The notes under the pieces: model-generated
The model's database searches: none
Told to the model about the DNA's origin: nothing
Seen by the model: only the letters and a program-made list of their open reading frames with translations
Shown: positions 185 through 13,175 of the stretch, piece by piece
Numbering within the stretch: position 1 is the stretch's first letter
Layout: every line of letters begins with the position of its first letter
Translations under genes and position numbers: made by a program
Source: a virus
Virus record (IMG/VR): IMGVR_UViG_3300027863_000016
Location: 1 to 13,175 of that record
Strand: one strand, 5' to 3'
DNA: 13,175 bases

Positions 185-215
185 CCCGCCGATGCTCCCG
201 GCGGGTTTTCGTTTT
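185..215 (+). terminator. GC-rich hairpin followed by a T-tract, oriented for the plus strand
   Basis: The stem is cccgccg (185-191) paired with cggcggg (199-205), followed by ttttcgtttt (206-215). On the minus strand the same hairpin has no downstream U-tract. Confidence 0.45.
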
Positions 216-424: not shown

Positions 425-606
425 TATTGATCCCTCCTGTCCCGCCTCGCCAAAAGCTCGTCCAGCACGCGCCGGGGAATTACCACCCGCTGCCCTAACC
501 TGATTGACTCGATTTCTCCCCGCTTGACCAATGCGTAGGCATGGGTACGGGAGATTCCCATTTCAGCCGCAAAGTCAGGGACATTCATGGTAGCTCTTAC
601 GGACAT
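424..606 (-). CDS. Excisionase-family (HTH_17 / MerR-superfamily) DNA-binding protein
   Basis: 60 aa. SD AAGGAGG lies 8 nt upstream of the ATG at 606. The sequence NVPDFAAEMGISRTHAYALVKRGEIESIRLGQRVVIPRRVLDELL fits the classic Xis/AlpA-type HTH pattern. Confidence 0.8.
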   Translation of the reverse strand: MSVRATMNVPDFAAEMGISRTHAYALVKRGEIESIRLGQRVVIPRRVLDELLARRDRRDQ

Positions 607-633
607 AGTTCATACCTCCTTAATTTTGAGCAT

Positions 634-660
634 AAAAAAACCACCCGAAGGATGGTTTTT
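634..660 (-). terminator. Rho-independent (bidirectional-looking) terminator after the 688-1368 gene
   Basis: The minus strand reads AAAAA-ccatcc-ttc-gggtgg-TTTTTTT, 28 nt after the stop at 688. An A-run and a T-run flank the stem. Confidence 0.7.
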
Positions 661-687
661 ATTGCTTGTGCCTAGTTGTATCTATTC

Positions 688-1368
688 TTATCTGGGCGGA
701 TTCTGGGCCAAAACCTCAACTATCTCCCCGTTGTCGTTGATGACAATATTTATGGGAAGGTATTTTGCCTCCTTTCCCTTGAAATGCCGCTCTTGATAAA
801 TCAGTATGTCGTCGGTTTCCCCGGGATGAGCGCCGAAAACGGGATGGCGTTGCCAAATGATTAATCCGGTATCCCCCAGGGAATCAAACTTTTCTGCCAA
901 GCTCCGGTTTACGCGCCAAAGAACGCTCCATAGTTCGCACGATGGTCCGGTCCCGGTAAGAACCCTGCTTCTGATTTCTGCCACAGTCTCCGGCGTCATC
1001 TTAGCACTACCGTGCATGAACCGCCATGCGGCGTAAGCCTCAGCCGGCGTTTCGTCTGGATAGTCGGCCACAATGCCAACGCCCCGACCACCGCCCTGCC
1101 GCGTGGCCTCTGGAATCAATCCGGCCGTCTCCCATCGGAGGAGTGAACGCCGGGATGTCTTGACCCCAAGTTTGTCCAAACGCTTCACAACTTCATCCGG
1201 CTTCATAATCACATCCCCGATATTCCTGAATTTGGGGTCACTCCTCCCGATTCCTTTGTGGCGAGGCTTGGCGTTTCGGGCCGCCCGGTCGGCGTTGTAG
1301 CGCACTGCCTCCCAGAACTCCTCGAACGGGTCAAAAGTTGAGTCCTGCGCAAGGCTCCCCATAGGCAT
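688..1368 (-). CDS. Hypothetical 226-aa protein with a central MerR/Xis-like HTH; stand-alone transcription unit
   Basis: SD GGGGGTGA precedes the ATG at 1368. The segment MKPDEVVKRLDKLGVKTSRRSLLRWETAGLIPEATRQGGGRG looks like a MerR-type HTH. The C-terminal about 100 aa have no motif I recognise. The gene has its own consensus promoter (1419-1447) and terminator (634-660). Confidence 0.8.
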   Translation of the reverse strand: MPMGSLAQDSTFDPFEEFWEAVRYNADRAARNAKPRHKGIGRSDPKFRNIGDVIMKPDEVVKRLDKLGVKTSRRSLLRWETAGLIPEATRQGGGRGVGIVADYPDETPAEAYAAWRFMHGSAKMTPETVAEIRSRVLTGTGPSCELWSVLWRVNRSLAEKFDSLGDTGLIIWQRHPVFGAHPGETDDILIYQERHFKGKEAKYLPINIVINDNGEIVEVLAQNPPR

Positions 1369-1418
1369 AGATCACCCCCGTTTAATCTCGCCACGACGTG
1401 TCTATATCAACCAAATTG

Positions 1419-1447
1419 ATTTTACCACGCCCAGGCTCTCCTGTCAA
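1419..1447 (-). promoter_or_regulatory. Sigma-70/SigA-type promoter for the 688-1368 gene
   Basis: The minus strand reads TTGACA (1447-1442), a 17-nt spacer, then TAAAAT (1424-1419), about 50 nt upstream of the ATG. Confidence 0.7.
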
Positions 1448-1468
1448 TGCCCCTGGAAAAGATTTATT

Positions 1469-1496
1469 CATCCCGGTCGCCTCGTCCACCGGGATG
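1469..1496 (-). terminator. 8-bp perfect hairpin; possible terminator of the integrase transcript or a regulator site
   Basis: catcccgg (1469-1476) pairs with ccgggatg (1489-1496) across a 12-nt loop. On the minus strand it is followed by AATAAATCTTTT. It sits just upstream of the 1419-1447 promoter. Confidence 0.35.
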
Positions 1497-1580
1497 GATC
1501 TCTGCCCTTCCGCCAGCGCATCTCCCATACACCAGCCAAAGCCGCCGGCCCGCGCCGCCGTAAGCGGGAGGAGTTACACT

Positions 1581-1620
1581 TTGACACCTCGGCTGACACC
1601 TACGGGACCTGATGACACCT
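1581..1620 (+). repeat. Left cluster of three TGACACCT repeats (candidate integrase arm-type sites, P arm)
   Basis: TGACACCT occurs at 1582-1589, 1594-1601 and 1613-1620. The block tttgacacctNNNNctgacacctacggg recurs at 1822-1849. Confidence 0.6.
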
Positions 1621-1748
1621 TAAAAAAGATTAGAAATAAGGGTACCGGGTTGGGTTCCCGATACCCTGGGGGCCGCACCAGATAGGGCTTCCTTGAATTA
1701 GCTTAACATGGCTTGAAGGTCCGCCATATAATTGGGGTGGTAGAGGCC

Positions 1749-1776
1749 GCAGGTTCAAGTCCTGTCGCTCCGACCA
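1749..1776 (+). other. tRNA 3-prime-end fragment (T-arm, 3-prime acceptor strand, ACCA), probably tRNA-Pro-like; candidate attP core
   Basis: GCAGG-TTCAAGT-CCTGT forms a T stem-loop, followed by CGCTCCG-A-CCA. The implied C1:G72 pair with an A73 discriminator is typical of bacterial tRNA-Pro. No matching 5-prime acceptor strand (CGGAGCG) lies upstream, so this is a fragment and not a gene. Confidence 0.6.
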
Positions 1777-1821
1777 ATAAAATCAAGGGGTCCGGGGTTT
1801 GAAGATAGGGTAGGGGAGAGG

Positions 1822-1849
1822 TTTGACACCTAAACTGACACCTACCGGG
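1822..1849 (+). repeat. Right cluster of two TGACACCT repeats (candidate arm-type sites, P-prime arm)
   Basis: TGACACCT occurs at 1824-1831 and 1836-1843, in the same orientation and with the same 12-bp spacing as the left cluster. It lies directly next to the integrase stop at 1853. Confidence 0.6.
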
Positions 1850-1852
1850 TCT

Positions 1853-3046
1853 TCAGGTCCCGGATCTTGCTTTACCCTGACCGATCAGGGCGGCCAGCCG
1901 GTCAACGGTGCGGCGTCTGTCCTCAAGGGTAGCATGGCAGTAGGTGCCGATGGTGGTTCTGATGTCGGCGTGGCCCATGAGCACCTGTATGTTTTTCGCC
2001 GGCTCCTGGGCCTGCCCCAGCATGGTTCCGAAAGTGTGTCGGATGGTGTGGACCCGGACTTCTTCCCGCAACCCGGCCCGTTTTAGGATGTTCTTCAACC
2101 GCTTCAAAACATTCCGCGGCTCCATCGGCTGCCCCGTAGGTCTGGCGAATACGAGGTCGTTATCCTGATACTTGTCGCCGTAGAAAAGCCGCTGTTCGTT
2201 CTGTTTTACCTTGTGTGCCTTCAATACCTGGATCACCTCGGCCGGGAGGGGGATTTCCCGCTTGGAGTTTTCTGTCTTGGGGCCCGCAAACGCCAGTTTG
2301 GTTTTCCCCTCGTAAGTCTCGATCCGGTTGACCGATTCTCGAACGATAATGACGCCAGCCTTGAAGTTCACATCCTTCCACCGTAAGGCGCAAAGCTCGC
2401 CCCGGCGCACGCCGGTGTAGAGCATGGTAAAGAAATACGAGTAAAGGTAATCGTCCTTGGCGGTCTCAAGGAACTTGTCCAACTCGGCCTTATCGAAAGG
2501 CATAACTTCCTTGTGTTTGACGGCCGGGCGCTGGGTCAACTCCGCAGGGTTGAAGGGAAGTACCTTCTGCCGGACTGCGTGCTTCAGGCATCCGCTAATC
2601 AACTGGTGGAGGATGGCGATGGTGCTGCTAGAATGGGTCTTGGCCTTCTCGTTGTAGAAGTTCTGCAACATATCCGACGTTATCTTTTGAATCTCCACCT
2701 TGCCTAAAACGGGGAAGATATTCGCCCTGGCATAGGTTTTATACTTGGTGAACGTGCTTTCCCGAACCTTCGGCTTGACGTAAAGGTCTAACCAGCGATT
2801 CGTATAGTCTTCCAGGGTTGCTTTAGTCGGATCGGTATAGGTTCCTGTCTTCACCGCGACCAGATAATCTTCCCGCTTCTTTATAGCATCCTTCTGGGAA
2901 TCGGCATATAGAGTCTTTACCATCTGCTTGCCCGTCAACGGGTCAAAGCCGGTTGTGATCTTCGCCGCCCACCTGCCGTCTTTCCGCTGAAAGACACTTC
3001 CTTCGCCGCTACCGCGTTTGCCTGTCTTCTTGCTCTTGCCTGCCAT
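1853..3046 (-). CDS. int: Tyrosine site-specific integrase (phage integrase family) with an N-terminal arm-binding-type domain
   Basis: Catalytic signature residues are present: R in YTGVRRGELCALRW, HxxR in HTIRHTFGT, and Y in TTIGTYCH. The N-terminus GSVFQRKDGRWAAKIT matches the arm-DNA-binding pattern. SD AAGGGGTGA lies 5 nt before the ATG at 3046. The ORF track extends to a GTG at 3055. Confidence 0.95.
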   Translation of the reverse strand: MAGKSKKTGKRGSGEGSVFQRKDGRWAAKITTGFDPLTGKQMVKTLYADSQKDAIKKREDYLVAVKTGTYTDPTKATLEDYTNRWLDLYVKPKVRESTFTKYKTYARANIFPVLGKVEIQKITSDMLQNFYNEKAKTHSSSTIAILHQLISGCLKHAVRQKVLPFNPAELTQRPAVKHKEVMPFDKAELDKFLETAKDDYLYSYFFTMLYTGVRRGELCALRWKDVNFKAGVIIVRESVNRIETYEGKTKLAFAGPKTENSKREIPLPAEVIQVLKAHKVKQNEQRLFYGDKYQDNDLVFARPTGQPMEPRNVLKRLKNILKRAGLREEVRVHTIRHTFGTMLGQAQEPAKNIQVLMGHADIRTTIGTYCHATLEDRRRTVDRLAALIGQGKARSGT

Positions 3047-3058
3047 CCAACTCACCCC

Positions 3059-3226
3059 TTACTTGAAAAGTTTCCCCATGACCCGGCCGGCCGCCCTGCC
3101 AACCGCCCGTCGAGCTATCCGCTTGTCCACGGTACCCTTCTGGACGGCGTTCACGTCGCCCAGGATTCGGGCTAGGCCGTAGAGCAAGCCCCTGGCGCTC
3201 GAAATCCCGCTCCGTCTCCGTGCCAC
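3059..3226 (-). CDS. Possible small basic protein (55 aa, GTG start)
   Basis: The frame is open from 3337 to 3062, and the only start codon is the GTG at 3226, preceded by GAAGGGGG and 8 nt. The product is VARRRSGISSARGLLYGLARILGDVNAVQKGTVDKRIARRAVGRAAGRVMGKLFK. Its TAA lies inside the integrase SD. It is below the length cutoff of the ORF track. Confidence 0.3.
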   Translation of the reverse strand: MARRRSGISSARGLLYGLARILGDVNAVQKGTVDKRIARRAVGRAAGRVMGKLFK

Positions 3227-3332
3227 CGCGACAACCCCCTTCGTATTTGCCCCAGGAGGGGCGATCCGGGCGCCAGGGGTACAACGTACCTGCCGGCCCC
3301 GTTTGGTTCGTCCTGCCGCGCCTGCGCCGCTG

Positions 3333-3536
3333 TTACCCTATGTTCTTTTCGAGCCACTTAATGAGCCCAGCCTTGGAGATGATCTTCTTTCGCGTGTTGG
3401 TTCTGAGCACCGGGAAACCGTCTACATGGCAGAGGTTGTAGGCGACGTCCCTGCTCACCCCGAGGATCTCAGCCAGTGTTGGGGGACCGAAGAAGTCTGG
3501 CGCGTCGGCCAGTTTAATGGTGCTTTTCAATGCCAT
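3333..3536 (-). CDS. Excisionase-type winged-HTH DNA-binding protein (paralog of 215-424)
   Basis: 67 aa. SD GGAGGAA precedes the ATG at 3536. It shares the DFFGPPTL...AYNL...GFPVLR...IISKAGLIKWLE motif with the 215-424 product. Confidence 0.75.
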   Translation of the reverse strand: MALKSTIKLADAPDFFGPPTLAEILGVSRDVAYNLCHVDGFPVLRTNTRKKIISKAGLIKWLEKNIG

Positions 3537-3692
3537 GATGTCATTCCTCCGTACATAGCCAGATTGTGAATTTTCGCCGGCCGGTGGCCGGATCGGCGCC
3601 GTAGTCCAGCGAAAATAGTAGTGTTTCGCTGTGCCTGGTGGGGCCCTACTAGAGCTGGCCGCCAGGGAGGGCCTTCGCGCGAGGCGGCAGCC

Positions 3693-3896
3693 TTATTCTT
3701 TAGGTTCTGGCTTCGTGCCGGTGTATCCGCTGGCCAGGAACTCTTCAAGCGCTTCCTCGGATATGCGCCAGTTGTTCCCGAGCTTGAACGCCGGCAGCTT
3801 GCCTTCCTTGATCCACCGAAGTACGGTCCCGGTCGGAACAATCAGGTACTTGCCGGCCTGCTCCGTGGTGTACAGCTTCGTGGGTAGCGGGGCCAA
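3693..3896 (-). CDS. Excisionase-family (HTH_17) DNA-binding protein
   Basis: 67 aa. The TTG start immediately follows the recombinase TAA, with SD GGAAGGAGGTGG 5 nt upstream. LYTTEQAGKYLIVPTGTVLRWIKEGKLPAFKLGNNWRISEEALEEFL is the classic pattern. Confidence 0.8.
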   Translation of the reverse strand: MAPLPTKLYTTEQAGKYLIVPTGTVLRWIKEGKLPAFKLGNNWRISEEALEEFLASGYTGTKPEPKE

Positions 3897-4643
3897 TTAA
3901 GCCACCTCCTTCCCGTGTAGACTGTTCTTCAGGACGTTGCTGACGGTGCTGGCGTACCACTTGCTGCCGCCTTTCTTCGTGGGAACCTGTTCCGCGGTCA
4001 GCCGGCGGGCAATCTCGTTGATGGAGGCGCCGGCCACCTTCATGTCCAGGATCCGCTTGACGGTTTCCTGCTCGGCCTCGTTCTCCACCAGGGCGTCACC
4101 GTTCCGGTCGAAACCCAGCGGGGTGGGGCCGTAAACTTCGCCGTGGGCCTTCTTATGGGCCAGTGCCTGGGTGGTACGCTCGGCGATCATGTTCCGCTCC
4201 AACTCGGCAAAGCCGGCGGCCATGGTGATGAAGAACCGGCCCATAGCGGTTCCGGTGTTGATGGCCGTGCCGCCCATGTCGATCAAGTGGAGGCTGACGC
4301 CAGCTTCGTCCCATGCCCGGGTCTGGTTCAAGCAGTCGGCCGCATCCCGGAAAAGCCGGTCCAGTTTCAGGGCCACGATGTTCTTAACACCGCGGTCCGT
4401 GACCTGGGTAAGAAGCTCCGCGCCGCCGGGCCGCGTTGCCAGTTCTTTGCTGGCGCTCACGCCTTCGTCGCGGACGACAGCCACCAGTTCCAGGCCGGCC
4501 ATGGTGCAGTATGCGCGAATCCGTTCTTCCTGCGCCGCCAGGGAAACGCCTTCGGTGGCTTGTTCGGTGGTACTGACCCGGACATATCCCACGGCCTGGG
4601 TAGCGGTAGCCTGCCCGGTGGTTTTCTTGGCGGCCTTTTTCAT
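3897..4643 (-). CDS. Serine recombinase (resolvase/invertase catalytic domain plus a recombinase domain; no zinc-ribbon or coiled-coil extension)
   Basis: AVGYVRVSTTEQ carries the catalytic Ser, and LKLDRLFRD is the DRLxR motif. The C-terminal part GPTPLGFDRNG...EAEQETVKRI...GASINEIARRL...KGGSKWYASTVSNVLKN resembles the recombinase domain of large serine recombinases. The protein ends at 248 aa. SD GGGAGG lies 8 nt before the ATG. Confidence 0.9.
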   Translation of the reverse strand: MKKAAKKTTGQATATQAVGYVRVSTTEQATEGVSLAAQEERIRAYCTMAGLELVAVVRDEGVSASKELATRPGGAELLTQVTDRGVKNIVALKLDRLFRDAADCLNQTRAWDEAGVSLHLIDMGGTAINTGTAMGRFFITMAAGFAELERNMIAERTTQALAHKKAHGEVYGPTPLGFDRNGDALVENEAEQETVKRILDMKVAGASINEIARRLTAEQVPTKKGGSKWYASTVSNVLKNSLHGKEVA

Positions 4644-4677
4644 GTGAACAACCTCCCGGTAACTTTTTCTTGTACTT

Positions 4678-4706
4678 ATTATACATCAACTTCACACATG
4701 GGTCAA
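4678..4706 (-). promoter_or_regulatory. Strong sigma-70/SigA-type promoter for the recombinase-to-integrase gene string
   Basis: The minus strand reads TTGACC (4706-4701), a 17-nt spacer, then TATAAT (4683-4678), 35 nt upstream of the ATG at 4643. Confidence 0.7.
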
Positions 4707-4795
4707 TAGCTCCTTCGTACATAACCGGACGGTCGTGTATAAACTTTTTAAGGGTAGGGGCAGGGGGGAGTGCTGAAATCCACCTCCACCGTTTG

Positions 4796-4840
4796 CCAGG
4801 GAGCGGGTCATCAGGGTCCGGTTATATCTCCGCTCCCTGG
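4796..4840. repeat. Perfect 11-bp inverted repeat enclosing the XRE stop codon
   Basis: ccagggagcgg (4796-4806) and ccgctccctgg (4830-4840) are separated by 23 nt. No U-tract follows on either strand. Confidence 0.8.
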
Positions 4841-5040
4841 TCCGGCAGATACTCAAAAAGGTCCCCGGGCTGACAATCTAAGGCCTCGCACAGCTTATCC
4901 ATCTGGCCCACCTCAATACGCTTGACGGTGCCCAGCCACAAGGCGGATACCGTGTTGGGCCGGATGCCAGTCTTTTCCGCTAGGGCCTTCTTCGTCAGCT
5001 TGTGCCGCCCCATGAGTTCGGCCACCTTGATGTTAATCAA
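4822..5040 (-). CDS. XRE/Cro-CI family HTH transcriptional regulator (short, YozG-like)
   Basis: 72 aa with a TTG start. LTKKALAEKTGIRPNTVSALWLG...MDKLCEALDCQPGDLFEY is the canonical short XRE pattern. Confidence 0.9.
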   Translation of the reverse strand: MINIKVAELMGRHKLTKKALAEKTGIRPNTVSALWLGTVKRIEVGQMDKLCEALDCQPGDLFEYLPDQGAEI

Positions 5041-5084
5041 TTTTTTATTCCCCTTCCCTGTGTGTAATAACCCCTGTCGTTTTG

Positions 5085-5114
5085 ATTATAACAGGGAACG
5101 ATATTTATACGCAA
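5085..5114 (-). promoter_or_regulatory. Candidate promoter for the XRE gene
   Basis: The minus strand reads TTGCGT (5114-5109), an 18-nt spacer, then TATAAT (5090-5085). The -10 box is enclosed by the inverted repeat CCCTGT (5072-5077) / ACAGGG (5091-5096). Confidence 0.5.
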
Positions 5115-5197
5115 CCCAAGGCCGTAAAATATCTATACGGGGTATTGACGATTATCTACAGGGGGTCTAAAATATCGGCAAGGGATAACCGATATCG
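5099..5197. promoter_or_regulatory. Repeat-rich divergent control region (candidate operators)
   Basis: ATATTTATACG (5101-5111) and ATATCTATACG (5129-5139) are direct repeats 28 bp apart. CGATAT/ATATCG half-sites occur at 5099-5104 and 5172-5177, and a CGATATCG palindrome at 5190-5197. These overlap both divergent promoters. Confidence 0.5.
5145..5173 (+). promoter_or_regulatory. Sigma-70/SigA-type promoter for the only plus-strand gene
   Basis: TTGACG (5145-5150), a 17-nt spacer, then TAAAAT (5168-5173). Confidence 0.65.
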
Positions 5198-5212
5198 ACA
5201 TAAAGGGGACGC

Positions 5213-5320
5213 ATGGCGAGGAGGTGGTCACCGGATAGACAAGGAAGTCCCCCGGCACCCCGCTGGCGGCCAACGGGCCGTCAAGAAATCGACAGCGAAG
5301 GAAGGGTGTATCGTGCTTAG
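5213..5320 (+). CDS. Possible 35-aa leader ORF overlapping the start of the ImmA-like gene
   Basis: The ATG at 5213 follows AAAGGGGA. The product is MARRWSPDRQGSPPAPRWRPTGRQEIDSEGRVYRA. Its TAG (5318-5320) overlaps the GTG at 5313. There is no recognisable motif. Confidence 0.15.
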   Translation: MARRWSPDRQGSPPAPRWRPTGRQEIDSEGRVYRA

Positions 5321-5834
5321 ATTCCTGGAGACCGTCGCTCACTACTACCGTTTGGAGATACGGTATGAGAACCTGCAGAATGAGCACCCCGGGCGTCTCG
5401 GAGTAGCCCGGCCTGCCAAAGGGCTAATTGTCCTAGATATATCCATTCGCGGGACCCGACAGGAGAAATGCGTTTTGGCCGAGGAGATTGGACATTGCCT
5501 TTATCCCCCCGTTGCAGATCATCGGTTGTTTTACAGCAAGAGGTTTTACACTCTCGATTCACATCAAAAGCGTGATCTGCGCCGCGATGTTTGGAGAGAG
5601 GAGCGGGCCGCCCGTTGCTGGGCTGCCGATGTTTTGATCCCTGACTATTGTTTTTGGGACTTCTTTGATATCGGTCCCCATGAAATGGAAGAATGGTGTG
5701 AGCGCTTCGATGTTGAGCCATGGCTTGTGGCTTTTAAGATTGCCTACCTACATAGTAAGGGGCGCCAGTCTGGCGGTCGGTTCTTTAAGTGGCACCAGGC
5801 CGTAAAGGGGTCATGTGTGCGTGCGCTGGCGTGA
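5313..5834 (+). CDS. ImmA/IrrE-like (M78 metallopeptidase fold) protein with a variant metal-binding motif
   Basis: The likely start is the GTG at 5313, preceded by GAAGGAAGGG and 6 nt. The ORF track start at 5082 lies upstream of the promoter. LIVLDISIRGTRQEKCVLAEEIGHCLYP...EERAARCWAADVLIPDYCF aligns by eye with the ImmA pattern (...FTLAHELGH...E.EAN.FAA.LLMP), but HExxH reads EEIGH here. Confidence 0.6.
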   Translation: MLRFLETVAHYYRLEIRYENLQNEHPGRLGVARPAKGLIVLDISIRGTRQEKCVLAEEIGHCLYPPVADHRLFYSKRFYTLDSHQKRDLRRDVWREERAARCWAADVLIPDYCFWDFFDIGPHEMEEWCERFDVEPWLVAFKIAYLHSKGRQSGGRFFKWHQAVKGSCVRALA

Positions 5835-5857
5835 GACATGCCGGATATTAAGGAGCG

Positions 5858-5877
5858 GGCCCGGGGGTACCCGGGCC
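5858..5877. terminator. 8-bp perfect GC hairpin between convergent genes
   Basis: ggcccggg (5858-5865), loop ggta, cccgggcc (5870-5877). No clear U-tract follows, so termination function is uncertain. Confidence 0.35.
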
Positions 5878-5950
5878 TTCGCTGTCCGTAAGACTCTTAA
5901 GAAAAGAGGACTATCGTTCCATGTCCCGCTCGATACCTTCACATAGTCGT

Positions 5951-6553
5951 CTACTTATCGTAAACCTTTCCGTATTGAACCTCTTTTAAGGTGATAAGAT
6001 AATAATTCTGGTATTGGCTAAGGTCGGAATTAAGTTGGTCCTGGCTGACATCGCCAGTAAGATATTCTGCCATATCGCTTACTGCATTAAGGGCAAAATC
6101 GGTCGTTGTAGCAACGTCAGATTGAATAAAACACCATGTTGGGTTAATCCCATTTGCAATGTCGGCAGACGCAGCACCCTGGGGCGGCGCAACGGCATCG
6201 CCTTTTGCCGATAAGGCTCTTGCTTCCTGCCCCTCAAAGGAGAACCAGCCAGGGTCTTCGGCACTAATTTGCTGATTTGTACCTGGTTGTAGCCCTTGAA
6301 AGCGTTCGTAGGCCTCGTTAAATTGGTCGTTTGTCCATAACAGGACGGCCTCTAATTCGTTCTGGGATAGAAGTTTGGGCGGCGCTGGAGTTGGCGCCGT
6401 CTTCGTCTGTGCCGATTTTCCCGATGCGTGCGATGGCGGGGAAGAGGTAGGAGCGGAGGGCGTCGATACCGAGGTATGCGTGCCCCCGCACCCAACCAGA
6501 ATCACCATGAGGAAAACAAGGATTGCCGCCCAGCCAATAGCGCGTTTAGCCAT
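5951..6553 (-). CDS. Secreted lipoprotein (200 aa) with a Pro/Ser/Thr-rich linker
   Basis: The ATG at 6553 is preceded by AAAGGAGGGG. The signal peptide is MAKRAIGWAAILVFLMVILVGC with lipobox LVGC, followed by GGTHTSVSTPSAPTSSPPSH...TAPTPAPP. The upstream extension in the ORF track (to 6661) runs through the TMP terminator. Confidence 0.8.
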   Translation of the reverse strand: MAKRAIGWAAILVFLMVILVGCGGTHTSVSTPSAPTSSPPSHASGKSAQTKTAPTPAPPKLLSQNELEAVLLWTNDQFNEAYERFQGLQPGTNQQISAEDPGWFSFEGQEARALSAKGDAVAPPQGAASADIANGINPTWCFIQSDVATTTDFALNAVSDMAEYLTGDVSQDQLNSDLSQYQNYYLITLKEVQYGKVYDK

Positions 6554-6628
6554 AGAAACCCCTCCTTTTGCCATGGTTATTCTGGCGCCAGGAAGATTTT
6601 CCTCTTTCCGGCGTTTTCCGGTCCCGGG

Positions 6629-6669
6629 AAAAAAAGATACCCCCGGCGCCCGTTCGAGCAACCGGGGGT
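6629..6669 (-). terminator. Rho-independent terminator after the tape measure gene
   Basis: The minus strand reads ACCCCCGG (6669-6662), a 15-nt loop, CCGGGGGT (6646-6639), then atc and TTTTTTT (6635-6629). Confidence 0.75.
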
Positions 6670-6711
6670 CTTGTTTAGTCCTCCAGCCCGGGACCGGGGT
6701 CCGCGCCGTCC

Positions 6712-8727
6712 TTAATAGACCGTAAGCACCTCGGCTGGCCGGCCGTAGGATATCTTGCGGCCCGTCCGCCCCAACTCCTTGATTACCTCCCGAGCTATCG
6801 CCTTCGGATCCTGGTTGGACTGGATGATGATGTTGATGTCTCCGTTATGCTGGCCGCCATAGAGCTTTGGCATCGACGAGCCCGGAATAGCGGCGGCGGC
6901 CATTTGCGAGGCCGCCCGCGATACGTAGTGCAGGTTGCCGGTCATGCCCTGAGCGAAGCCCAAGGCCGTGTATTGGCCGAACTGGGCCATGAGCCTCGAT
7001 GGCGAACTGATCCCCAGGAAATGCTTCACCGGGTCCACGACATTGCTCCTGAAGAAGTTGGACACCTGGGTCTTGAGCCAGCTTTCCAGCCTTACGATGC
7101 CCTGGACGAAGCCCTTGATGAAGCTGTCGCCCCACTGCATGGCCTCGGCCGGGAGATTCCTGAAGAACTCCTGAACTATGGCCCACTCGGTCGTGACCCA
7201 TTTGACCGTGGCCGCCCAATGCCCCCGGATGTTTCCCCAGTTATTGCGCCAGGCCAGCCAGAGGGCGGCCACGATGAGGATTAGGCCCTCTATTACCCAC
7301 AGGATAGGCCCGCCGGCTACCTGAACGGCAATGAGCGGGCCGACAAGCCCGCTGAAGGCTGTACCGATAGCCCTGATTACGGTGACGATCAGCCCCAGGT
7401 TCTTCAGGTATCCGATGCCGGCCCCAAGCAGCATCAGTGGCCCGACGACAAGCATAGCGGCAGATGCTATCGAAGTAAAAACAACGATGAATCGCATCAG
7501 CGGCGAGTGGGTTTGGACAAAACGCAAGACCACCGCCAGTACCTTGTTAAGGTTGGTCAGGAGTGGCAAGAGCGCTGGCGCTACGTTCTTGCCGAACGCC
7601 GTAAATATGTCGTGCAGCGTAGATACGAGCTGCTTTGTCTGCCCACCCCACGTTGCATTTTGTGCGGCCTGCATCTGGTTCACGGTCGGCGACGTTCGCA
7701 TCTGTTGCTGTACTCCTGTGTACAGACCCGCCGCCCCCGGGCTGGCCATTATCATGGCTACCCGCTCCCCCTGAAGCCCGAAGATGTTCTTCAGTAGCGG
7801 CACCATCACATTCGCGTCGCCGCGGAACCGCTTGCTGAAGTCCTGCATGATCTTGACCGATTCCGGGATCCCCACGAAAGCACCCTGGGCGTTCTCAAAC
7901 ACGGAGTGCCCGTTATGGACGAAGCCGGCCGCTATCATGGATTCGTCGGCCTTCTTGCCGGAGGAGCCGTAGATGCTCCGCGTAAGGAAATCCTGAAAGT
8001 TCGTTCCACCCCGGCCGGAGCCAAGGCCCATCCGGGAAAGCCATGCCGTGGTTGCAAGAGCATCCTGGAAACTCATGCCCATTACCTTTCCTGTGGTTGC
8101 GACGTACTTAAAGGTTGTGGCGAACTCGCTGGCCGTGTCGTGCGTGTGCATCAGCGCGGCATTCAGTTGGTTAAGAAACGGGGAGACCTGGGCCCCTGAG
8201 TAAAGTTGGTACTGGTGGGCCATTTTTACGGCGTCCGCTGTCACATCGGGAGCGTTTTCACCCTTTTGGAGCTTTTGCACGTCGGCAAAGTTGACGTACT
8301 CCTGCAAAAGATCGGGGTTTAACACCGCCTGTTTTGTCAGGCCAGAGGTAGCCATTGCCTGCATAATGCCGCCTACATCGGTAGCGGCGAATATAGTCGG
8401 GATGCCGGTAGTCTGCGCTAGGTTGATGGCCTTCTCGAACTCGGCATTGGTCAGCCCAAGGGCGTTCTTGACGCCCATCATGGACGCTTGAAGTTGGCCG
8501 TATGCATCAGCAGCCTTGACCAGTCCATAGGCCAGCCCCGCGCCGACTACGGTCAAGCCGGCCCCCACCATTGCCATGTTCTTCAAGCTGGTGAGTTTGG
8601 CTTGCATGGCCTCAGCTTGTGCGCTCATGGTTCCCATCTGTGCGCTCATCTTAGTCATTGGGCCTGTCATGTAGTCGTAAGCCCGGATGGCCACGCCAAC
8701 CTCAAAGGTTTTCTCCAACATACCCAC
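6712..8727 (-). CDS. Phage tail tape measure protein (TP901-type core region)
   Basis: 671 aa. The N-terminal helical part has GLTNAEFEKAINLAQTTGIP...ATDVGGIMQAMATSGL and GMSFQDALATTAWLSRMGLGSGRGGTNFQDFL, which fits the tape-measure core pattern. A cluster of hydrophobic helices spans about residues 420-500. The C-terminal LGISSPSRLMAQFGQYTALGFAQG motif is typical. The GTG start at 8727 abuts the upstream TAG. Confidence 0.85.
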   Translation of the reverse strand: MGMLEKTFEVGVAIRAYDYMTGPMTKMSAQMGTMSAQAEAMQAKLTSLKNMAMVGAGLTVVGAGLAYGLVKAADAYGQLQASMMGVKNALGLTNAEFEKAINLAQTTGIPTIFAATDVGGIMQAMATSGLTKQAVLNPDLLQEYVNFADVQKLQKGENAPDVTADAVKMAHQYQLYSGAQVSPFLNQLNAALMHTHDTASEFATTFKYVATTGKVMGMSFQDALATTAWLSRMGLGSGRGGTNFQDFLTRSIYGSSGKKADESMIAAGFVHNGHSVFENAQGAFVGIPESVKIMQDFSKRFRGDANVMVPLLKNIFGLQGERVAMIMASPGAAGLYTGVQQQMRTSPTVNQMQAAQNATWGGQTKQLVSTLHDIFTAFGKNVAPALLPLLTNLNKVLAVVLRFVQTHSPLMRFIVVFTSIASAAMLVVGPLMLLGAGIGYLKNLGLIVTVIRAIGTAFSGLVGPLIAVQVAGGPILWVIEGLILIVAALWLAWRNNWGNIRGHWAATVKWVTTEWAIVQEFFRNLPAEAMQWGDSFIKGFVQGIVRLESWLKTQVSNFFRSNVVDPVKHFLGISSPSRLMAQFGQYTALGFAQGMTGNLHYVSRAASQMAAAAIPGSSMPKLYGGQHNGDINIIIQSNQDPKAIAREVIKELGRTGRKISYGRPAEVLTVY

Positions 8728-9138
8728 CTACATCGCCCCTTTCACACTCAGTCCGGCCTTTTCGGCGCAGGTCTTGCAGTAACTCGGCGGCTGACTATCG
8801 ACCAGGTGAGCGGGGTGGTGGCCCGTGCCGGCGTAGCACTCCGGGCAGACCCGCCGGCTGCAGGCTGCACATGAGACGCACACCGGAACCTCTTCCCCAC
8901 AAGCCTGGCAGCGCTCGGTCTTCACGGCCATCTTCCGGTACCGGTCCCGGGCCGCGGCGAAGTGCCGCTTGAAGGTGTGCCGGTCGAAGCCCGGGAGGGT
9001 ATTGCACCCGGAGCCCTTCAATGCGTTCCAGATTATCCCCTCGACCTGTTTTGGGGTCTTGCCGATAGTGCACCAGCGCCGCAGGCCTTCGGTGTAGTCA
9101 CGGACAGTCTCTTCGTTAAGATCCAAGGCCTTCACCAC
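8728..9138 (-). CDS. Cys-rich (multi-CxxC, zinc-ribbon-like) hypothetical protein
   Basis: The frame is open from about 9240. The preferred start is the GTG at 9138 or the TTG at 9126, both preceded by AAAGGTGGTGAAGG and overlapping the upstream stop at 9116. The C-terminus is CQACGEEVPVCVSCAACSRRVCPECYAGTGHHPAHLVDSQPPSYCKTCAEK. The stop abuts the TMP start. The true start is uncertain. Confidence 0.6.
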   Translation of the reverse strand: MVKALDLNEETVRDYTEGLRRWCTIGKTPKQVEGIIWNALKGSGCNTLPGFDRHTFKRHFAAARDRYRKMAVKTERCQACGEEVPVCVSCAACSRRVCPECYAGTGHHPAHLVDSQPPSYCKTCAEKAGLSVKGAM

Positions 9139-9370
9139 CTTTCGTACTGTTTTCTGCTTCCTGCAGGGCCTTCTCAAACTGGGCCCGGTCTTCGGCATCG
9201 AGCAGGTCCGCAATGCCGAGTTCCTTTGCCCCGCGAAGGATTACCGCCAACCCATCGCAAGGGAGTAGCCGGGACGGCGCACATGCCGAATGGAATCGAC
9301 CGCGGTTTACCTGACATTTCCACCCCTCCTTTGATGCTTTGGCAGCAAAGTTGTCATTATCACCCCCCAT
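9116..9370 (-). CDS. Hypothetical protein (84 aa)
   Basis: The ATG at 9370 overlaps the TerL stop (ATGGGGGGTGA). The C-terminal half GLAVILRGAKELGIADLLDAEDRAQFEKALQEAEN looks protein-like, but the SD is weak. An alternative 47-aa ORF in another frame has a much stronger SD (AAAGGAGGGG, ATG near 9297). Confidence 0.4.
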   Translation of the reverse strand: MGGDNDNFAAKASKEGWKCQVNRGRFHSACAPSRLLPCDGLAVILRGAKELGIADLLDAEDRAQFEKALQEAENSTKGGEGLGS

Positions 9371-10805
9371 ATCCCTGGTTGACCACCAGGTCAAACAAAC
9401 TCGTGTTGTACATGCTTTCAAGCAGTTCTTCCCGGGAAACCGTCATCGTCGAAAACTCAACCTTTCTTTGTCGGGAAGGAGCGAACGCCAACACCACCGC
9501 ATCTGCCCGGTCAGGCGACGCCAGGCCCCGCTTCTTCATGTCCTTTTTGGGCTCCAGGGTGATCTTGCCCTTGCTGGTGATGGTGTACTTCCGGGTGGTC
9601 AATTGCCCCACCAAGTCATCGTCGTTAACCAGTTGCGGCTCCTCATCTTGCAGCAGGTCCCGCAAGTGGGCCCATGTCTCAGCGCCCCAGTTCTCGTAGT
9701 GCTCAGAGTCGGTCGCCGTCCCCCCGTTGTGGCAATCAACAATCTCTATAGCCAGGTCCTGTTCCTTAACCACTTCCCGGCATCGGTCGGTCACCGCGCC
9801 ACCAACCCCGTCGTCATCGATCCTGACCACGCATTTGGGCTTGCCGTACTTGGCCATCAGCTTCTTGGCAGCCGCCAGAACCTGGCCGCTCGTGACCATG
9901 GTGTCCTGCTTCGAGTGCGCCTCCTGGTGGATTTGCTTCAGCCCAATCCTGGCCGCAATCACCGTCTCATCGTCACCGAACCGGGCCACGTCAACGCCCA
10001 ACTCCAGGGAGCCATCAGCCTCTATTTCCCGCATGGTAGCGGCTTCGACGATATCCAGAGGGATGAACGTGTCAGGCTCGGCCTTTGGAAATTCGCCCAG
10101 GACGCGAACCCGGTAGACGTCGGAGTCCTCGTGGTATTTCCTTTTGAGCCGTTCGGCGTATTCTTTCGTGACCCGGGGGCTGTCCAGGCATGATACTCGC
10201 TTCGTCCAGTACAGGGCCCGGTCCTTGAAAAAGGCATCGTGGAAGACGCCGCTGTTCTTCGTTGGGTTGCTGCACAAAAGGAGCTTGGCGTCCGCCGTGG
10301 TCAGCGCGCCCTCAATGGCTTCAAAGATCCCATCGGCAACGCCGGAGGCTTCGTCTATGATGAACAAGATGTGGTCTTCATGGAAGCCAGCCAAGTTTTC
10401 CGGCTTGTTGCTGGTCCTGGCCACCGCGAACCACCGAGAAGCATGTTGCTTGCGGACAATGCGCGTCTTCTGCCACTCAAACTCCGCTTTCAGGGCCGGC
10501 GCGTTCTCGATCCACTTGGCTGCCTCCGGCCAGAGAACGTCAAAGAGTTGCTGGCGCGTTGGAGCGGTACACGGGATCTTGGGAAAGGGCCGGGTAAACA
10601 TAAACCACAGCAGGACCCATGCTTCCAGGGCCGTCTTGCCTACGCCATGACCGGAGCGGATGGCAAGCCGCGGGTGGCGGCCGATGGCGGCCAGGGCCTC
10701 GTCTTGCCACGGGTCCGGATCGGCATGGAGTACGCTGCGAACAAAAAGGCCTGGCTCATTCGCCAGGCGCCGAAATGTGGCCACGGCCTCTTTACTCGCT
10801 GACAT
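9360..10805 (-). CDS. terL: Terminase large subunit (ATPase plus nuclease)
   Basis: Walker A is RSGHGVGKT and Walker B is ILFIIDEASGV. LGEFP and the C-terminal RNaseH-like nuclease motif GVDVARFGDDETV are present. The gene overlaps the upstream small-terminase candidate. The start is either the ATG at 10805 or an upstream TTG/GTG (10814/10811). Confidence 0.9.
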   Translation of the reverse strand: MSASKEAVATFRRLANEPGLFVRSVLHADPDPWQDEALAAIGRHPRLAIRSGHGVGKTALEAWVLLWFMFTRPFPKIPCTAPTRQQLFDVLWPEAAKWIENAPALKAEFEWQKTRIVRKQHASRWFAVARTSNKPENLAGFHEDHILFIIDEASGVADGIFEAIEGALTTADAKLLLCSNPTKNSGVFHDAFFKDRALYWTKRVSCLDSPRVTKEYAERLKRKYHEDSDVYRVRVLGEFPKAEPDTFIPLDIVEAATMREIEADGSLELGVDVARFGDDETVIAARIGLKQIHQEAHSKQDTMVTSGQVLAAAKKLMAKYGKPKCVVRIDDDGVGGAVTDRCREVVKEQDLAIEIVDCHNGGTATDSEHYENWGAETWAHLRDLLQDEEPQLVNDDDLVGQLTTRKYTITSKGKITLEPKKDMKKRGLASPDRADAVVLAFAPSRQRKVEFSTMTVSREELLESMYNTSLFDLVVNQGYGG

Positions 10806-11337
10806 CCTCACCAACCCAAACTGCCTGCAGGATGTTGGTCAGGTGGTCTAGGGCATCCGCCTGCTTGGACGCTGGATCGTCGCCCAGAAGCTCCAATTTC
10901 GTCCTCATGGCCTGGCGAATCTCCGCAGCGGTTTTCTCGTGGAGCGCAACTAGGCTCATTGGCGGCCGTGGTACCCTCCTCTCTGCCGGTTCCTCCTGCG
11001 GTTTCAGAATATCGGTGAGCCACGCCCTGGCCTGCTGGTGCAGGCTATGGTTGCCCTGGATAACGCTGTCCAGGATCTCCAGGTCGGACAGCCGCTTTTC
11101 AACGGCCTCCTGCATGACCGCCTGGGATTGCTGATACTGTTCCCGAACAGCCGCAGGAACGTCGAAGTGCTCCCTGAAATGTCGGCCGATGGCCGGGTTA
11201 GAAATCGACTCACCCATCTCGGCCAGCCGGCGTTCAACCTCCCGGTAGCGTACACCGTCTTGCTTGACCCATTGTTCGATTTGCGCCCGGTGGGGGCTGT
11301 GACAGACTTTACAGCGTCCAATGACCACCTCAGCCAT
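10792..11337 (-). CDS. terS: Candidate terminase small subunit (N-terminal CxxC plus HTH-like segment, helical C-terminus)
   Basis: The ATG at 11337 follows GAAGGAGTGA and 5 nt. GRCKVCHSPHRAQIEQWVKQDGVRYREVERRLAEMGESISNPAIGRHFREH resembles phage small-terminase and DNA-recognition proteins. It overlaps terL by 14 nt. The call rests mainly on position. Confidence 0.55.
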   Translation of the reverse strand: MAEVVIGRCKVCHSPHRAQIEQWVKQDGVRYREVERRLAEMGESISNPAIGRHFREHFDVPAAVREQYQQSQAVMQEAVEKRLSDLEILDSVIQGNHSLHQQARAWLTDILKPQEEPAERRVPRPPMSLVALHEKTAAEIRQAMRTKLELLGDDPASKQADALDHLTNILQAVWVGEDVSE

Positions 11338-11371
11338 CTGAATCACTCCTTCGCGAACTACCATTTTCTTG

Positions 11372-11407
11372 ATGCAAAGTGCAACGTTGCAAAACTGTGC
11401 ATTGCGA
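11372..11407. promoter_or_regulatory. TGCAA-repeat / palindrome cluster upstream of the terminase genes
   Basis: A perfect 12-bp palindrome TGCAACGTTGCA sits at 11380-11391, flanked by further TGCAA/TGCA copies. On the minus strand a weak TTGCAA-18-GAAAAT promoter can be drawn. Confidence 0.4.
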
Positions 11408-11414
11408 CGCCGGT

Positions 11415-11702
11415 TTACGGCAAGCCTTCATCACGGACCACCGGGGCTTTCCCTAACCACTCGATGAACGCCGTCAAGTCATCCTCGCCACCCTCAGCTA
11501 GGTATTCCCGCAGCTTGTTTGCGTACCAGTCTGCGTAATGGACCGTCTCGCGTCCTTCCGCGTGTTCGACCAGGTCCTTGGTTATGGCGTTGCAGGCATC
11601 CGGATACCGTATTACGGCCTGGACCCACCGCCGTTCAAGCTCGAAGTTTATTGTCTTCCTTGTCACCAGGGCTTTAAGGCGCCGCCTGTTGTTCACATTC
11701 AT
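11415..11702 (-). CDS. Hypothetical protein (about 95 aa)
   Basis: The start is the ATG at 11702 or the in-frame GTG at 11696, after ACGGAGGG. The product is MNVNNRRRLKALVTRKTINFELERRWVQAVIRYPDACNAITKDLVEHAEG...FIEWLGKAP. I recognise no family. It sits where late-gene activators often lie, which is inference only. Confidence 0.55.
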   Translation of the reverse strand: MNVNNRRRLKALVTRKTINFELERRWVQAVIRYPDACNAITKDLVEHAEGRETVHYADWYANKLREYLAEGGEDDLTAFIEWLGKAPVVRDEGLP

Positions 11703-11868
11703 CCCTCCGTTTGGACCTGGCATCCGTTGAGCGGGTCCGCTTTTCATACTTACCCCTGCGGATTGCCCGCTTCCAGATTTCCGCGTCATGCGCCAGAAGG
11801 CTTATCAACTCCGCTTCTGTCAGATAGAGTTCACATTTAGTCAATTTGAGCGCGATCATCTTTTCCAT
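11674..11868 (-). CDS. Hypothetical protein (64 aa)
   Basis: The ATG at 11868 follows GGAGGTGG and 7 nt. The product is MEKMIALKLTKCELYLTEAELISLLAHDAEIWKRAIRRGKYEKRTRS... with a basic tail. It overlaps the next gene by about 25 nt. Confidence 0.55.
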   Translation of the reverse strand: MEKMIALKLTKCELYLTEAELISLLAHDAEIWKRAIRRGKYEKRTRSTDARSKRRDECEQQAAP

Positions 11869-12028
11869 GCTCAGACCACCTCCGGTAAGGTCATTTGTTG
11901 CGTCATCTGGCCGGTGTCCCGCTCCGGTCCTGGATTGATCCGCCGGGCGCTGGACACCCGCATTCATGGGCGGCGAAGGATTCCTCCACCTGGTCATAGG
12001 CGCTCAGGACGGCCGCCGCAAAGAGTCG

Positions 12029-12985
12029 TCAGAGGAACAGGTCTTCATCGGTGAACTCGTTGCCATGGACAGCGCTGGTGTCCTGGTCGGGGCATTTGTT
12101 GGGTCGGCATGGGGTCGGGCCGGGCCAGCTTGATGTTGGGAAGTTGCCCGACTGGTGGCGCGTTGCTCCAGTTGCAGATCCCTCTTCGTCTAGCCAGCCT
12201 TTGGCGTTCAACCACGTCGATGGGTATGGAATAAAGCGGCCACCTTCCCGTTTCCATGATGCGGAACGCTTGGCCCGCTCCAGCCCTGCCATGATGGCTG
12301 TGAAAAGCTGCTCGTCCGGCTTGATCTTTTCCCAGGTTTTCTCGGCCTTGCCTTTAGACTTTTTCGTGGGGTAGGCCGCCCAGAACCAGGAGAATGCTTC
12401 CTGCCGGTCAAAAACCTTACCCCCCACACCCCCCTGGTTCCTAGTTCCTGGTTTTAAGTTCCTAGTTTCGGTTATAGTTTCGGTTCCTAGTTCTAGGCCG
12501 ACGTGCGGCAGACGTGTCTCTGACGTGTCTCCGACAAGTCGGCTACATGGCAACAATTCGTCGTGGATCAAGTACCGGCATTTGTAGCGCTGCCGCTTAC
12601 CGTCCTCGTTGAACTCCTCGCACCATTCCAGCCAGGACGGAAGGGGTATGGTGGCTTTATTTGGCGGCGTCGGGTTATCAAGAGTCTGGTGCCGATGGAA
12701 ATTCACAAGGAAAAGGCACCGTTTCCCGGCGGCCATGTACGGCACCAGTTTTCCGAGCTCAACCAGTTGATCCCGCCATCCAGCCAAAACCTCGGTCGTG
12801 ACGTCTTCATCCAGAGGCGAGGCAAATAAGTGGACTTTGAACGCGAATGGACTGTCTTCAAGACAGCCTGAATCGTCCGCCAATTGCCAGAGGCCGACGT
12901 AAAACCAGCGCATATCCCGGCGCCACTGCAGTAGGTCTGGATCATTCCAGAAGGCCGCCTTGATCTGACGGTTATGCAATCTCAC
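12029..12985 (-). CDS. Replication initiator (phage replisome-organizer-like N-terminus; C-terminal FWxxYPxK...W...PxPxTWLN domain)
   Basis: The N-terminus IKAAFWNDPDLLQWRRDMRWFYVGLWQLADDSGCLED matches the replisome-organizer N-domain pattern. The C-terminus FSWFWAAYPTKKSKGKAEKTWEKI...WKREGGRFIPYPSTWLNAKGWLDE is a recurring phage/plasmid replication-protein motif. The GTG at 12985 overlaps the upstream TGA (GTGA), and an ATG at 13003 is also possible. Confidence 0.7.
   Translation of the reverse strand: MRLHNRQIKAAFWNDPDLLQWRRDMRWFYVGLWQLADDSGCLEDSPFAFKVHLFASPLDEDVTTEVLAGWRDQLVELGKLVPYMAAGKRCLFLVNFHRHQTLDNPTPPNKATIPLPSWLEWCEEFNEDGKRQRYKCRYLIHDELLPCSRLVGDTSETRLPHVGLELGTETITETRNLKPGTRNQGGVGGKVFDRQEAFSWFWAAYPTKKSKGKAEKTWEKIKPDEQLFTAIMAGLERAKRSASWKREGGRFIPYPSTWLNAKGWLDEEGSATGATRHQSGNFPTSSWPGPTPCRPNKCPDQDTSAVHGNEFTDEDLFL
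12437..12531. repeat. Iteron-like repeat array inside the initiator gene (candidate origin of replication)
   Basis: GTTCCTAGTT occurs at 12437-12446, 12458-12467 and 12483-12492. TAGTTTCGGTT occurs twice between 12463 and 12485. GACGTG-type 11-bp-phased repeats occur at 12500, 12511 and 12522, the last two as identical GACGTGTCTC. The array encodes the low-complexity linker between the two protein domains. Confidence 0.6.
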
Positions 12986-13175
12986 AGCCGACCGCCCTCC
13001 CATCCCCTCAGCCGGTCCAATGCCTCAGTCCTGGTCCGCCGGTCGCCCAGGTCGCGGAGATCAGCCTCGACCCGCTCCAGGGCCTGCATGATGGACGGCC
13101 CCCGAACGACGTCGGTCAGGGCCATCCGCCGCAAGCTGGCGGCCGTCGCAGTGAACGCAGCTTCCGGATTGACGG
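12982..13175 (-). CDS. C-terminal part of the junction-crossing 76-aa ORF (partial at the window edge; 13049-13175 duplicates 1-127)
   Basis: This is the same frame as feature 1-164 after joining the ends. The TGA at 12984-12982 overlaps the GTG start of the initiator gene. Confidence 0.5.
   Translation of the reverse strand, partial: VNPEAAFTATAASLRRMALTDVVRGPSIMQALERVEADLRDLGDRRTRTEALDRLRGWEGGRL
13049..13175. repeat. Terminal direct repeat, copy 2 (circularisation overlap)
   Basis: Identical to bases 1-127. Confidence 0.95.

Follow-up and report, generated by a model that had tools for sequence, protein, structure and literature searches.

A circular, phage satellite-like element from a Yellowstone metagenome carries an intact tape measure gene outside any tail module

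The IMG/VR virus record IMGVR_UViG_3300027863_000016, analysed here from position 1 to 13,175 (13,175 nucleotides; hereafter the window), represents a whole circular element of 13,048 bp from a thermophilic Bacillota host. Its sole recognisable virion structural gene encodes an intact tape measure protein (TMP; positions 6712-8727, minus strand). This gene closes an operon that contains the terminase genes and adjoins a rare partner gene, p132; TMP genes in a similar non-tail context recur in three relatives from other metagenomes. With a confidence barely above even, we put forward that the element resembles a phage satellite, and that its TMP enters contractile tails built by a helper phage.

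The open reading frame (ORF) at 6712-8727 begins with GTG and encodes 671 aa. The start chosen by the Joint Genome Institute (JGI), a TTG at 8718, gives a 668-aa product identical to P0001; on exact-protein look-up this form of the TMP was matched and the 671-aa GTG form was not. The protein scores 61.7 bits against PF10145 PhageMin_Tail (cut-off 33.2; E 1.1e-16) and 67 bits against TIGR01760 tape_meas_TP901 (cut-off 28.8), and matches phrog_28, "tail length tape measure protein", at E 3e-42, in addition to a dozen other TMP phrogs. These profile searches place it in the tail TMP family, and not in a non-tail family. Two hydrophobic segments (aa 51-70 and aa 408-494) were found, and the sequence SPSR occupies aa 575-578, in a module common to P0002. 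The initial annotation, made from the letters alone, had described a full-length 671-aa TMP with core motifs, a hydrophobic cluster and an SPSR motif, a description which the profiles and the full-length alignment bear out.

A word-indexed search among 5.8 billion proteins returned 36 relatives of the TMP, the closest being 45-56% identical, and four of the relatives (666-704 aa) are alignable with 98-99% of the window protein. P0006, P0014 and P0027, at 98-99% coverage, themselves lie inside modules with the order sheath, tube, tail assembly chaperone (TAC), TMP and baseplate. No known phage TMP is more than 56% identical to the window TMP over its full length, and among cultured phages the closest is Alicyclobacillus phage MMB025, whose annotated TMP is 38% identical. 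In a multiple alignment, the N-terminus, the core, the hydrophobic cluster and the extreme C-terminus are conserved with phage TMPs. In known tails, the ends of the TMP contact the tail tip complex and the tail terminator. The conservation of both termini thus fits a real incorporation into a tail, which at ~1.5 Å per residue is predicted to measure ~100 nm. We regard it as established by sequence comparison that this ORF is an intact TMP, homologous end to end with those of contractile-tailed Bacillota phages.

The size of the hydrophobic cluster at aa 408-494 could also suggest a TMP-like membrane protein repurposed outside the virion, as an envelope channel, a superinfection-exclusion factor or in some other DNA-transfer role, and both the adjoining lipoprotein gene and the failure to find other tail genes would agree with this. 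Yet the cluster and all other modules are common to bona fide phage TMPs, no match to a relaxase, a type IV secretion system or a defence family was found, and the gene is linked to those of the terminase. Such a repurposing seems to us very improbable.

What sets the window TMP apart is its location. Phage TMPs such as P0006 (locus L003), P0014 (L004), P0005 (L006) and that of MMB025 share with it full-length homology (45-56%), domain order, cluster and termini, but always reside inside a block of sheath, tube, TAC/LysM, hub and baseplate genes, unlike the TMPs of the window, L023, L030 and L034. In our census of phage contexts, which covers L001, L003, L004, L006, L007, L031-33 and L036-39, the TMP homologue sits between sheath-tube-TAC and LysM-hub-gp25-baseplateJ genes in 12 loci out of 12. 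This block starts with the sheath (~490-500 aa), the tube, the TAC (~110-123 aa) and a 45-53-aa ORF, and continues after the TMP with a LysM protein, a 388/516-aa protein, the hub (Phage_base_V), a gp25-like protein and Baseplate_J. Four loci have no tail module around an intact TMP (hereafter orphan TMP), namely the window, L023, L030 and L027/L034.

In the window, the TMP gene is not placed between chaperone and baseplate genes; its neighbours are p132 on one side and a terminator, followed by a lipoprotein gene, on the other. Searches of Pfam, PHROGs and NCBIfam gave no capsid, portal, protease, connector, sheath, tube, chaperone, hub or baseplate match for any ORF, and tblastn with the sheath, tube, TAC, LysM, hub, gp25-like and baseplate-J proteins of the closest phage loci found nothing in the window. 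Given that the window is a complete circle, the absence of tail genes applies to the whole element rather than to a truncated fragment. Tube, distal tail and baseplate genes, which had initially been noted as missing around the TMP, are thus not recognisable anywhere on the circle. The accompanying claim that the TMP is the only virion structural gene of a satellite-like element finds support in the form that it is the sole recognisable one, on a complete circle with a satellite-like layout.

The circularity of the element is indicated by several assemblies. Bases 1-127 of the window are repeated exactly and in direct orientation at 13049-13175, leaving a unit of 13,048 bp. The JGI contig L002 is a circular permutation of the element with a terminal repeat of 121 nt, and a MEGAHIT k141 contig (the record of L024) measures 13,189 nt, or 13,048+141. 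All three are 100% identical where they overlap, and their break points differ; overlaps of k-mer length (121, 127 and 141) at three break points are what the assembly of a circular or tandem 13,048-bp unit leaves behind. The sample, the Yellowstone Obsidian Pool metagenome Ga0078972 / SRR6049666, consists of bulk community DNA and is not a virome. As these are short-read metagenome assemblies, and two similar HTH_17 modules (helix-turn-helix, HTH) could confuse the assembly graphs, an artefact has to be considered, that is, a chimera or a collapsed repeat joining unrelated phage fragments. Against it stand the recovery of one and the same circle at the three k values from different break points, and two partial contigs from other runs, L025 and L026, which are identical to it over their overlaps, the former spanning the TerL-p132-TMP joins. 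Furthermore, the adjacency of p132 and TMP is independently present in distant relatives. We find an assembly artefact scarcely credible.

The TMP is the last gene of a minus-strand operon with the order p64, p93, TerS-like, TerL, p84, p132 and TMP. Two small ORFs of 93 aa and 64 aa (11415-11868) form its head, and are followed by a gene similar to terminase small subunits (TerS; 10792-11364), which resembles Mu gp27 and phrog_426 and has an N-terminal CxxC, and by a full-length terminase large subunit (TerL) of the "terminase B" type (9360-10814), all on the minus strand. From TerS to TMP neighbouring ORFs overlap or abut, and the stop codon TAG of p132 directly adjoins the GTG of the TMP. 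On the other side, an intrinsic-terminator-like structure of the same strand lies 3' of the TMP gene (6618-6697): a GC-rich hairpin (6639-6669) starts 42 nt past the stop codon and is followed by a run of seven T (T7, 6630-6636), both nested in a longer inverted repeat that extends over 6618-6697. The minimum free energy is -52.4 kcal/mol (z = -3.3), and 0/200 shuffles fold as well; a simple consensus terminator scan missed the hairpin because its loop is long. Both the gene overlaps and the folding of hairpin and T7 sustain the first reading of the locus, in which the TMP closes the terminase operon with a strong terminator behind it.

The TerL contains a P-loop (GVGKT), a Walker B-like ILFIIDE and a nuclease motif (SPDRADA), and has thousands of relatives. 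The closest (78% identity) belongs to the prophage L008, in which TerS, TerL, portal, MuF-like head morphogenesis and decoration genes are followed, further along, by Neck1 and sheath genes; on this gene content L008 is a contractile-tailed (myovirus-type) phage. The TerS of the window is 44% identical to that of L008. A recombination scar at the C-terminus of the window TerL was considered and rejected: the stretch after SPDRADAVVLAFAP varies in all homologues, and the TerL is thus complete. Genes predicted to redirect packaging, a satellite trait, are therefore present in the form of a TerS-like gene and a full-length TerL.

Directly upstream of the TMP lies p132 (8728-9126, minus strand), which encodes 132 aa from a TTG start with a strong Shine-Dalgarno sequence. 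The protein is predicted to combine a helical N-terminal domain with eight conserved Cys, arranged as a two-zinc motif, either a cross-brace or similar to a zinc ribbon. When 1.84 billion cluster representatives were searched exhaustively with HMMER, the family (P0159-P0163) proved to comprise only four clusters, whose members adjoin an orphan TMP wherever the context is visible. No match to p132 was found in Pfam, PHROGs, NCBIfam, PADLOC or the phage collection, and its AlphaFold2 (AF2) model (pLDDT 71) had no Foldseek match among the BFVD viral models. A profile search of the PDB gave generic zinc-finger matches only (E ~4e-3), and the alignment of the family is too variable for a pattern scan. 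The possibility that p132 is a TAC was rejected, given an hhalign probability of 3% for p132 against the TAC profile. From the conserved adjacency of the two genes we propose that p132 is a TMP-linked assembly or selection factor, or a regulator.

The other loci with an orphan TMP provide additional clues. L023 (7.4 kb) carries, in this order, HTH_31, HTH_17, Rep-like, p132-like, TMP (675 aa), coiled-coil protein and TerS-like genes, with identities to the window of 27% for the Rep-like protein, 31% for the p132-like protein and 43% for the TMP. In L027/L034, small ORFs are followed by p132-like, Neck1/HK97-gp10-like and TMP (719 aa) genes. L030, seen over 12 kb of a 15-kb contig, contains the end of a gp10-like gene, the TMP (664 aa), a coiled-coil protein, SHOCT, a membrane protein, recombinases, a Cro-like HTH protein (52% identical to that of the window) and a tyrosine integrase (32%). 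A p132-like gene was seen in L023 and L027/L034; the contig of L030 ends 130 nt upstream of its TMP. No TerL was found in the parts seen of L023, L027 and L030, and TerL thus seems particular to the window element, the p132-TMP pair being the shared core. The Neck1/tail-completion (HK97 gp10-like) gene was located at 1136-1609 in L027, at 313-786 in L034 and, as its end, at 1-130 in L030. Two proteins related to tail or neck are thus contributed by these elements; from the window element this gene has either been lost or was always absent.

Whether related small elements also keep the TMP was a pertinent question of the initial annotation, and in L023, L030 and L027/L034 the gene is intact, with no pseudogene among them. 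Moreover, the ratio of non-synonymous to synonymous substitution (dN/dS) between the two closest orphan TMPs, those of L030 and L034, is 0.18 (at dS 0.9), and the gene is thus under purifying selection and not decaying. Retention of an intact TMP outside tail modules thus characterises a family of small integrative elements. Alternatively, the element could be the remnant of a prophage in decay, derived by deletion from a myovirus and still able to excise as a circle, in which the TMP is a leftover without a current role. In effect, TerS-TerL...TMP is the phage order minus the portal-to-TAC and baseplate-to-lysis blocks, and the serine recombinase of the element is short (248 aa). Opposed to this are the integrity of TMP and TerL, both without frameshifts, the low dN/dS, and the recurrence of the non-tail context and of a rare shared partner gene in elements only 31-45% identical. 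In addition, no portal remnant exists between TerL and p132, and the compactly arranged genes are accompanied by a terminator, an attP-like site and Rep. We hold a remnant to be quite unlikely.

The phylogeny of the TMPs (neighbour-joining, N-terminal 440 aa) does not unite the orphan genes. The window TMP groups with P0005, P0004 and P0006, phage TMPs to which it is 60-63% identical, while the other orphan TMPs group with different phage-context sequences, P0025 and P0027. The branching pattern, in combination with the shared p132, suggests a TMP gene that was exchanged with various helper lineages or diverged in step with them. The orphan TMPs span 664-719 aa (median 673), whereas the median for TMPs in phage contexts is 769 aa (one-sided Mann-Whitney p 0.013); with n = 4 vs 11 and samples that are not phylogenetically independent, the difference represents a trend only.

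Satellites that encode a TMP have been described in other lineages. The phage-inducible chromosomal island (PICI)-like elements (PLEs) of Vibrio cholerae have genes for a TMP and a TAC and, in some cases, for a hub; their TMP replaces that of ICP1 in virions, yielding tails ~10 nm shorter. Efficient transduction requires this TMP, and thanks to it PLE11 evades the TMP-targeting inhibitor Rta that it encodes itself (PMC11838301, PMC12987554). Predicted tmp genes also occur in PLE-like elements and in some capsid-forming PICIs (cf-PICIs) (PMC12987554, Nature 2026), and the EPIPs, ~11-kb satellites of the Mycolicibacterium prophage HerbertWM, carry a TMP and are associated with longer, variable tails (bioRxiv 10.64898/2025.12.02.691453). 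Since TMPs of PLEs, cf-PICIs and EPIPs are already published, a satellite-encoded TMP is not a new principle. Tail-length retuning and escape from TMP-targeted interference, the two roles first imagined for the window gene, are likewise reasonable as analogies with the PLE11 findings, and are not new ideas.

The present element is similar to these groups in outline and a member of none. As in PLEs, satellites of the contractile-tailed myovirus ICP1, we find a small integrative element with its own TMP, which may be diverged from that of the helper, and with most tail parts missing, so that they would have to come from a helper. It differs from them by its Bacillota host, by its own TerS and TerL and by p132, and no TcaP-like capsid-remodelling gene is recognisable in it; nor is a TAC, a hub or an Rta-like gene, although Rta is without a detectable family and small uncharacterised ORFs exist here. 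Furthermore, the PLE results are experimental, while this element is known from its genes and is set apart through published descriptions. With EPIPs it shares a small genome, TerS, an integrase and the TMP, tail proteins being otherwise lacking. EPIPs, however, have a major capsid protein, a scaffold, a head-tail adaptor, a stopper and a serine integrase, and none of those head genes was found in the window, which has instead a TerL and a tyrosine integrase and derives from another host phylum. Of the EPIP gene set, only TerS, TMP and the short serine recombinase have counterparts here. The cf-PICIs are also integrative, with their own TerS and TerL, use helper tails and in some cases have a predicted TMP, but what defines them is a set of HK97-type capsid, portal, protease and connector genes of their own, for which Pfam, PHROGs and NCBIfam gave no match in the window. 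Finally, classical PICIs, including the Staphylococcus aureus pathogenicity islands (SaPIs), and P4 are comparable as small integrative elements with regulator, replication and packaging-specificity genes that exploit a helper virion, but classical PICIs and P4 redirect capsid size, use the TerL of the helper and encode no tail component.

In this context, we envisage the following scenario. During activity of a contractile-tailed helper phage, the element would excise and replicate, and its own terminase would package its DNA into procapsids made by the helper. A 13-kb genome in a head of normal size would probably involve multimeric headful packaging, which we propose because no capsid-resizing gene is recognisable in the element. 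The helper would provide sheath, tube, chaperone and baseplate, and the element TMP would take the place of the helper TMP in those tails, giving rise to chimeric tails; p132 might assist the TMP, be it as a dedicated factor in its assembly or selection or through regulation. Several general features of satellites are at hand: a small complete genome (13,048 bp) without most virion genes, with the TMP as sole recognisable structural gene, and modules of its own for integration/excision, replication and regulation (integrase, recombinase, four HTH_17 genes, Rep, Cro-like and ImmA-like genes).

Several observations weigh against this scenario. Our searches identified no helper phage and gave no contig from the same sample, no IMG/VR contig has both a related TerL and a related TMP, and the extension of L008 added only 413 bases; moreover, the TerL-type and TMP-type phages that were found differ in sheath family. 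Neither a TAC nor a baseplate hub was recognised in the element, though PLEs carry both beside their TMP, and p132 is no TAC homologue by hhalign (3%) and is without a structural match. The sample being a bulk metagenome and not a virome, packaging is a prediction, and the three circular assemblies, 100% identical and from the same site, may share reads. Finally, only short contigs represent the relatives (7.4 kb, 3.4 kb and 12 kb seen out of 15 kb), with no TerL in the parts seen of L023, L027 and L030.

The lack of an own TAC or hub can also be read as a sign of interference rather than piracy. The TMP would then be a poison or decoy that enters or blocks the tail assembly of the helper and lowers its yield, unneeded for the transfer of the element itself. 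Defences of satellites and prophages are known to act on tail assembly, as do Rta in PLE11 and tail-assembly-interference systems, and the TMP is ~40-50% diverged from its phage relatives. On the other hand, the termini and the whole core of the protein are conserved and under purifying selection, the gene is co-transcribed with the terminase genes in the manner of a late morphogenetic gene, satellite TMPs are structural in PLEs, and a decoy need not be full length. Interference thus appears unlikely to us as the role of this TMP, but the two roles are not mutually exclusive.

Returning to the satellite-like scenario, a further extension of it can be offered with considerable doubt. The p132-TMP pair might define an undescribed satellite class of contractile-tailed Bacillota phages, to whose virions the tape measure would be the only contribution. 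In such a class p132 would be a new TMP-specific factor, replacing the TAC or selecting the satellite TMP, and the TMP would have been repeatedly swapped with those of helpers.

To our knowledge, until 2025 satellites were believed to take helper tails unchanged. The work on PLEs has revealed that a satellite can replace the core protein of the tail (PMC12987554). The window element and its three relatives from other metagenomes suggest an independent origin of this strategy in thermophilic Bacillota, where it would take a more pared-down form, with a TMP but no chaperone or hub, coupled to its own terminase and paired with the zinc-finger protein p132. If so, the manipulation of tails would broaden into a general feature of satellites, the element would provide a simple system for asking how a foreign TMP gets selected into a tail, and a TMP outside a tail module could serve as a marker for satellites that current tools miss. 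Should the p132-TMP class be real, substitution of the TMP would represent a minimal and portable takeover of helper tails.

The remaining gene repertoire of the circle comprises mostly regulatory and recombination genes. Two HTH_17 (excisionase/AlpA-like) genes (215-606, minus strand) lie upstream of the gene for the replication initiation protein (Rep; 12029-13003, minus strand), which has a DnaD-like C-terminal part and is 27% identical to the Rep-like protein of L023. A tyrosine integrase gene (1853-3055, minus strand) was identified with Pfam and PHROGs. It adjoins a region (1582-1843, plus strand) that is likely to be attP with arm-type sites in the classical layout, judging from its repeats: five copies of TGACACCT, arranged 3+2 (chance expectation 0.3), lie on either side of GGTTCAAGTCCTGTCGCTCCGACCA (~1751-1775), a sequence resembling a tRNA 3' end. 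The Rfam tRNA match at this site is weak and incomplete (13.8 bits, E 1.7, in a scan of 1680-1800 alone), and no tRNA gene was found by ARAGORN or by a whole-window Rfam scan. The C1:G72/A73-type ending of GGTTCAAGTCCTGTCGCTCCGACCA would fit tRNA-Pro. Just upstream of the integrase gene region, at 3189-3279, there is a 25-nt inverted repeat (76% complementary, 41-nt spacer).

A second HTH_17 pair (3333-3896) is located between the tyrosine integrase and a short serine recombinase of 248 aa (3897-4643, minus strand), which consists of a Resolvase domain and the start of a Recombinase domain. The recombinase ends inside the latter domain, its stop codon directly adjoining the start of the following HTH_17 gene. 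The two HTH_17 pairs are alike, HTH17_b and HTH17_c being 57% identical. This arrangement may have originated from a duplication of the module, or from an insertion that truncated a large serine recombinase. Farther along, a Cro/cI-type HTH gene (4822-5040, minus strand) and an ImmA/IrrE-like metalloprotease gene (5313-5834, plus strand) are divergent and separated by 272 nt, with a promoter-like site at 5145-5173. The latter is the only called gene of the plus strand, and no ImmR-type repressor gene is adjacent on that strand. The circle also encodes a 226-aa HTH protein. A megablast of the whole element against phage and plasmid collections returned no match.

The 234-nt stretch between TerL and p132 (region 9116-9421) is annotated differently by the two sources, with an ORF of 84 aa (p84; 9116-9370, minus strand) in the JGI call and no gene in that of the European Nucleotide Archive (ENA). 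No homologues of the uncertain p84 emerged from profile or homologue searches. A portal-gene remnant was rejected, as tblastx shows no similarity, and so was a G/GT-type frameshift pair of p84 and p132, which would require a +1 shift and for which no slippery heptamer was seen. A different frame holds an alternative ORF of 47 aa, whose ATG at 9317 is preceded by a strong AAAGGAGGGGTG ribosome-binding site.

Beyond the terminator of the TMP operon lies a gene (5951-6553, minus strand) for a lipoprotein of 200 aa with the lipobox LVGC. Its candidacy as an Ltp-like exclusion protein was not sustained, with no Pfam match and a single-sequence AF2 model that was unusable (pLDDT 42). Lipoproteins or membrane-anchored proteins are encoded near the TMP in other orphan-TMP elements also, at 3371-4006 in L030 and 6403-7377 in L023, and like that of the window they have a Pro/Thr/Ala-rich linker and an unrelated C-terminal domain. 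A link of these TMP-adjacent lipoproteins to TMP-targeted exclusion is a speculation. A counterpart is found at 7447-8025 of the phage locus L031, which has a 2.7-kb insertion between TAC and TMP with genes for the lipoprotein, a Cro-like HTH protein (39% identical to that of the window) and a 511-aa Cys-rich protein. In another phage locus, L033, an ORF of 286 aa (2731-3591) intervenes between the small TAC-associated ORF and the TMP of an otherwise canonical tail module. The junction of TAC and TMP seems to be an insertion hot spot.

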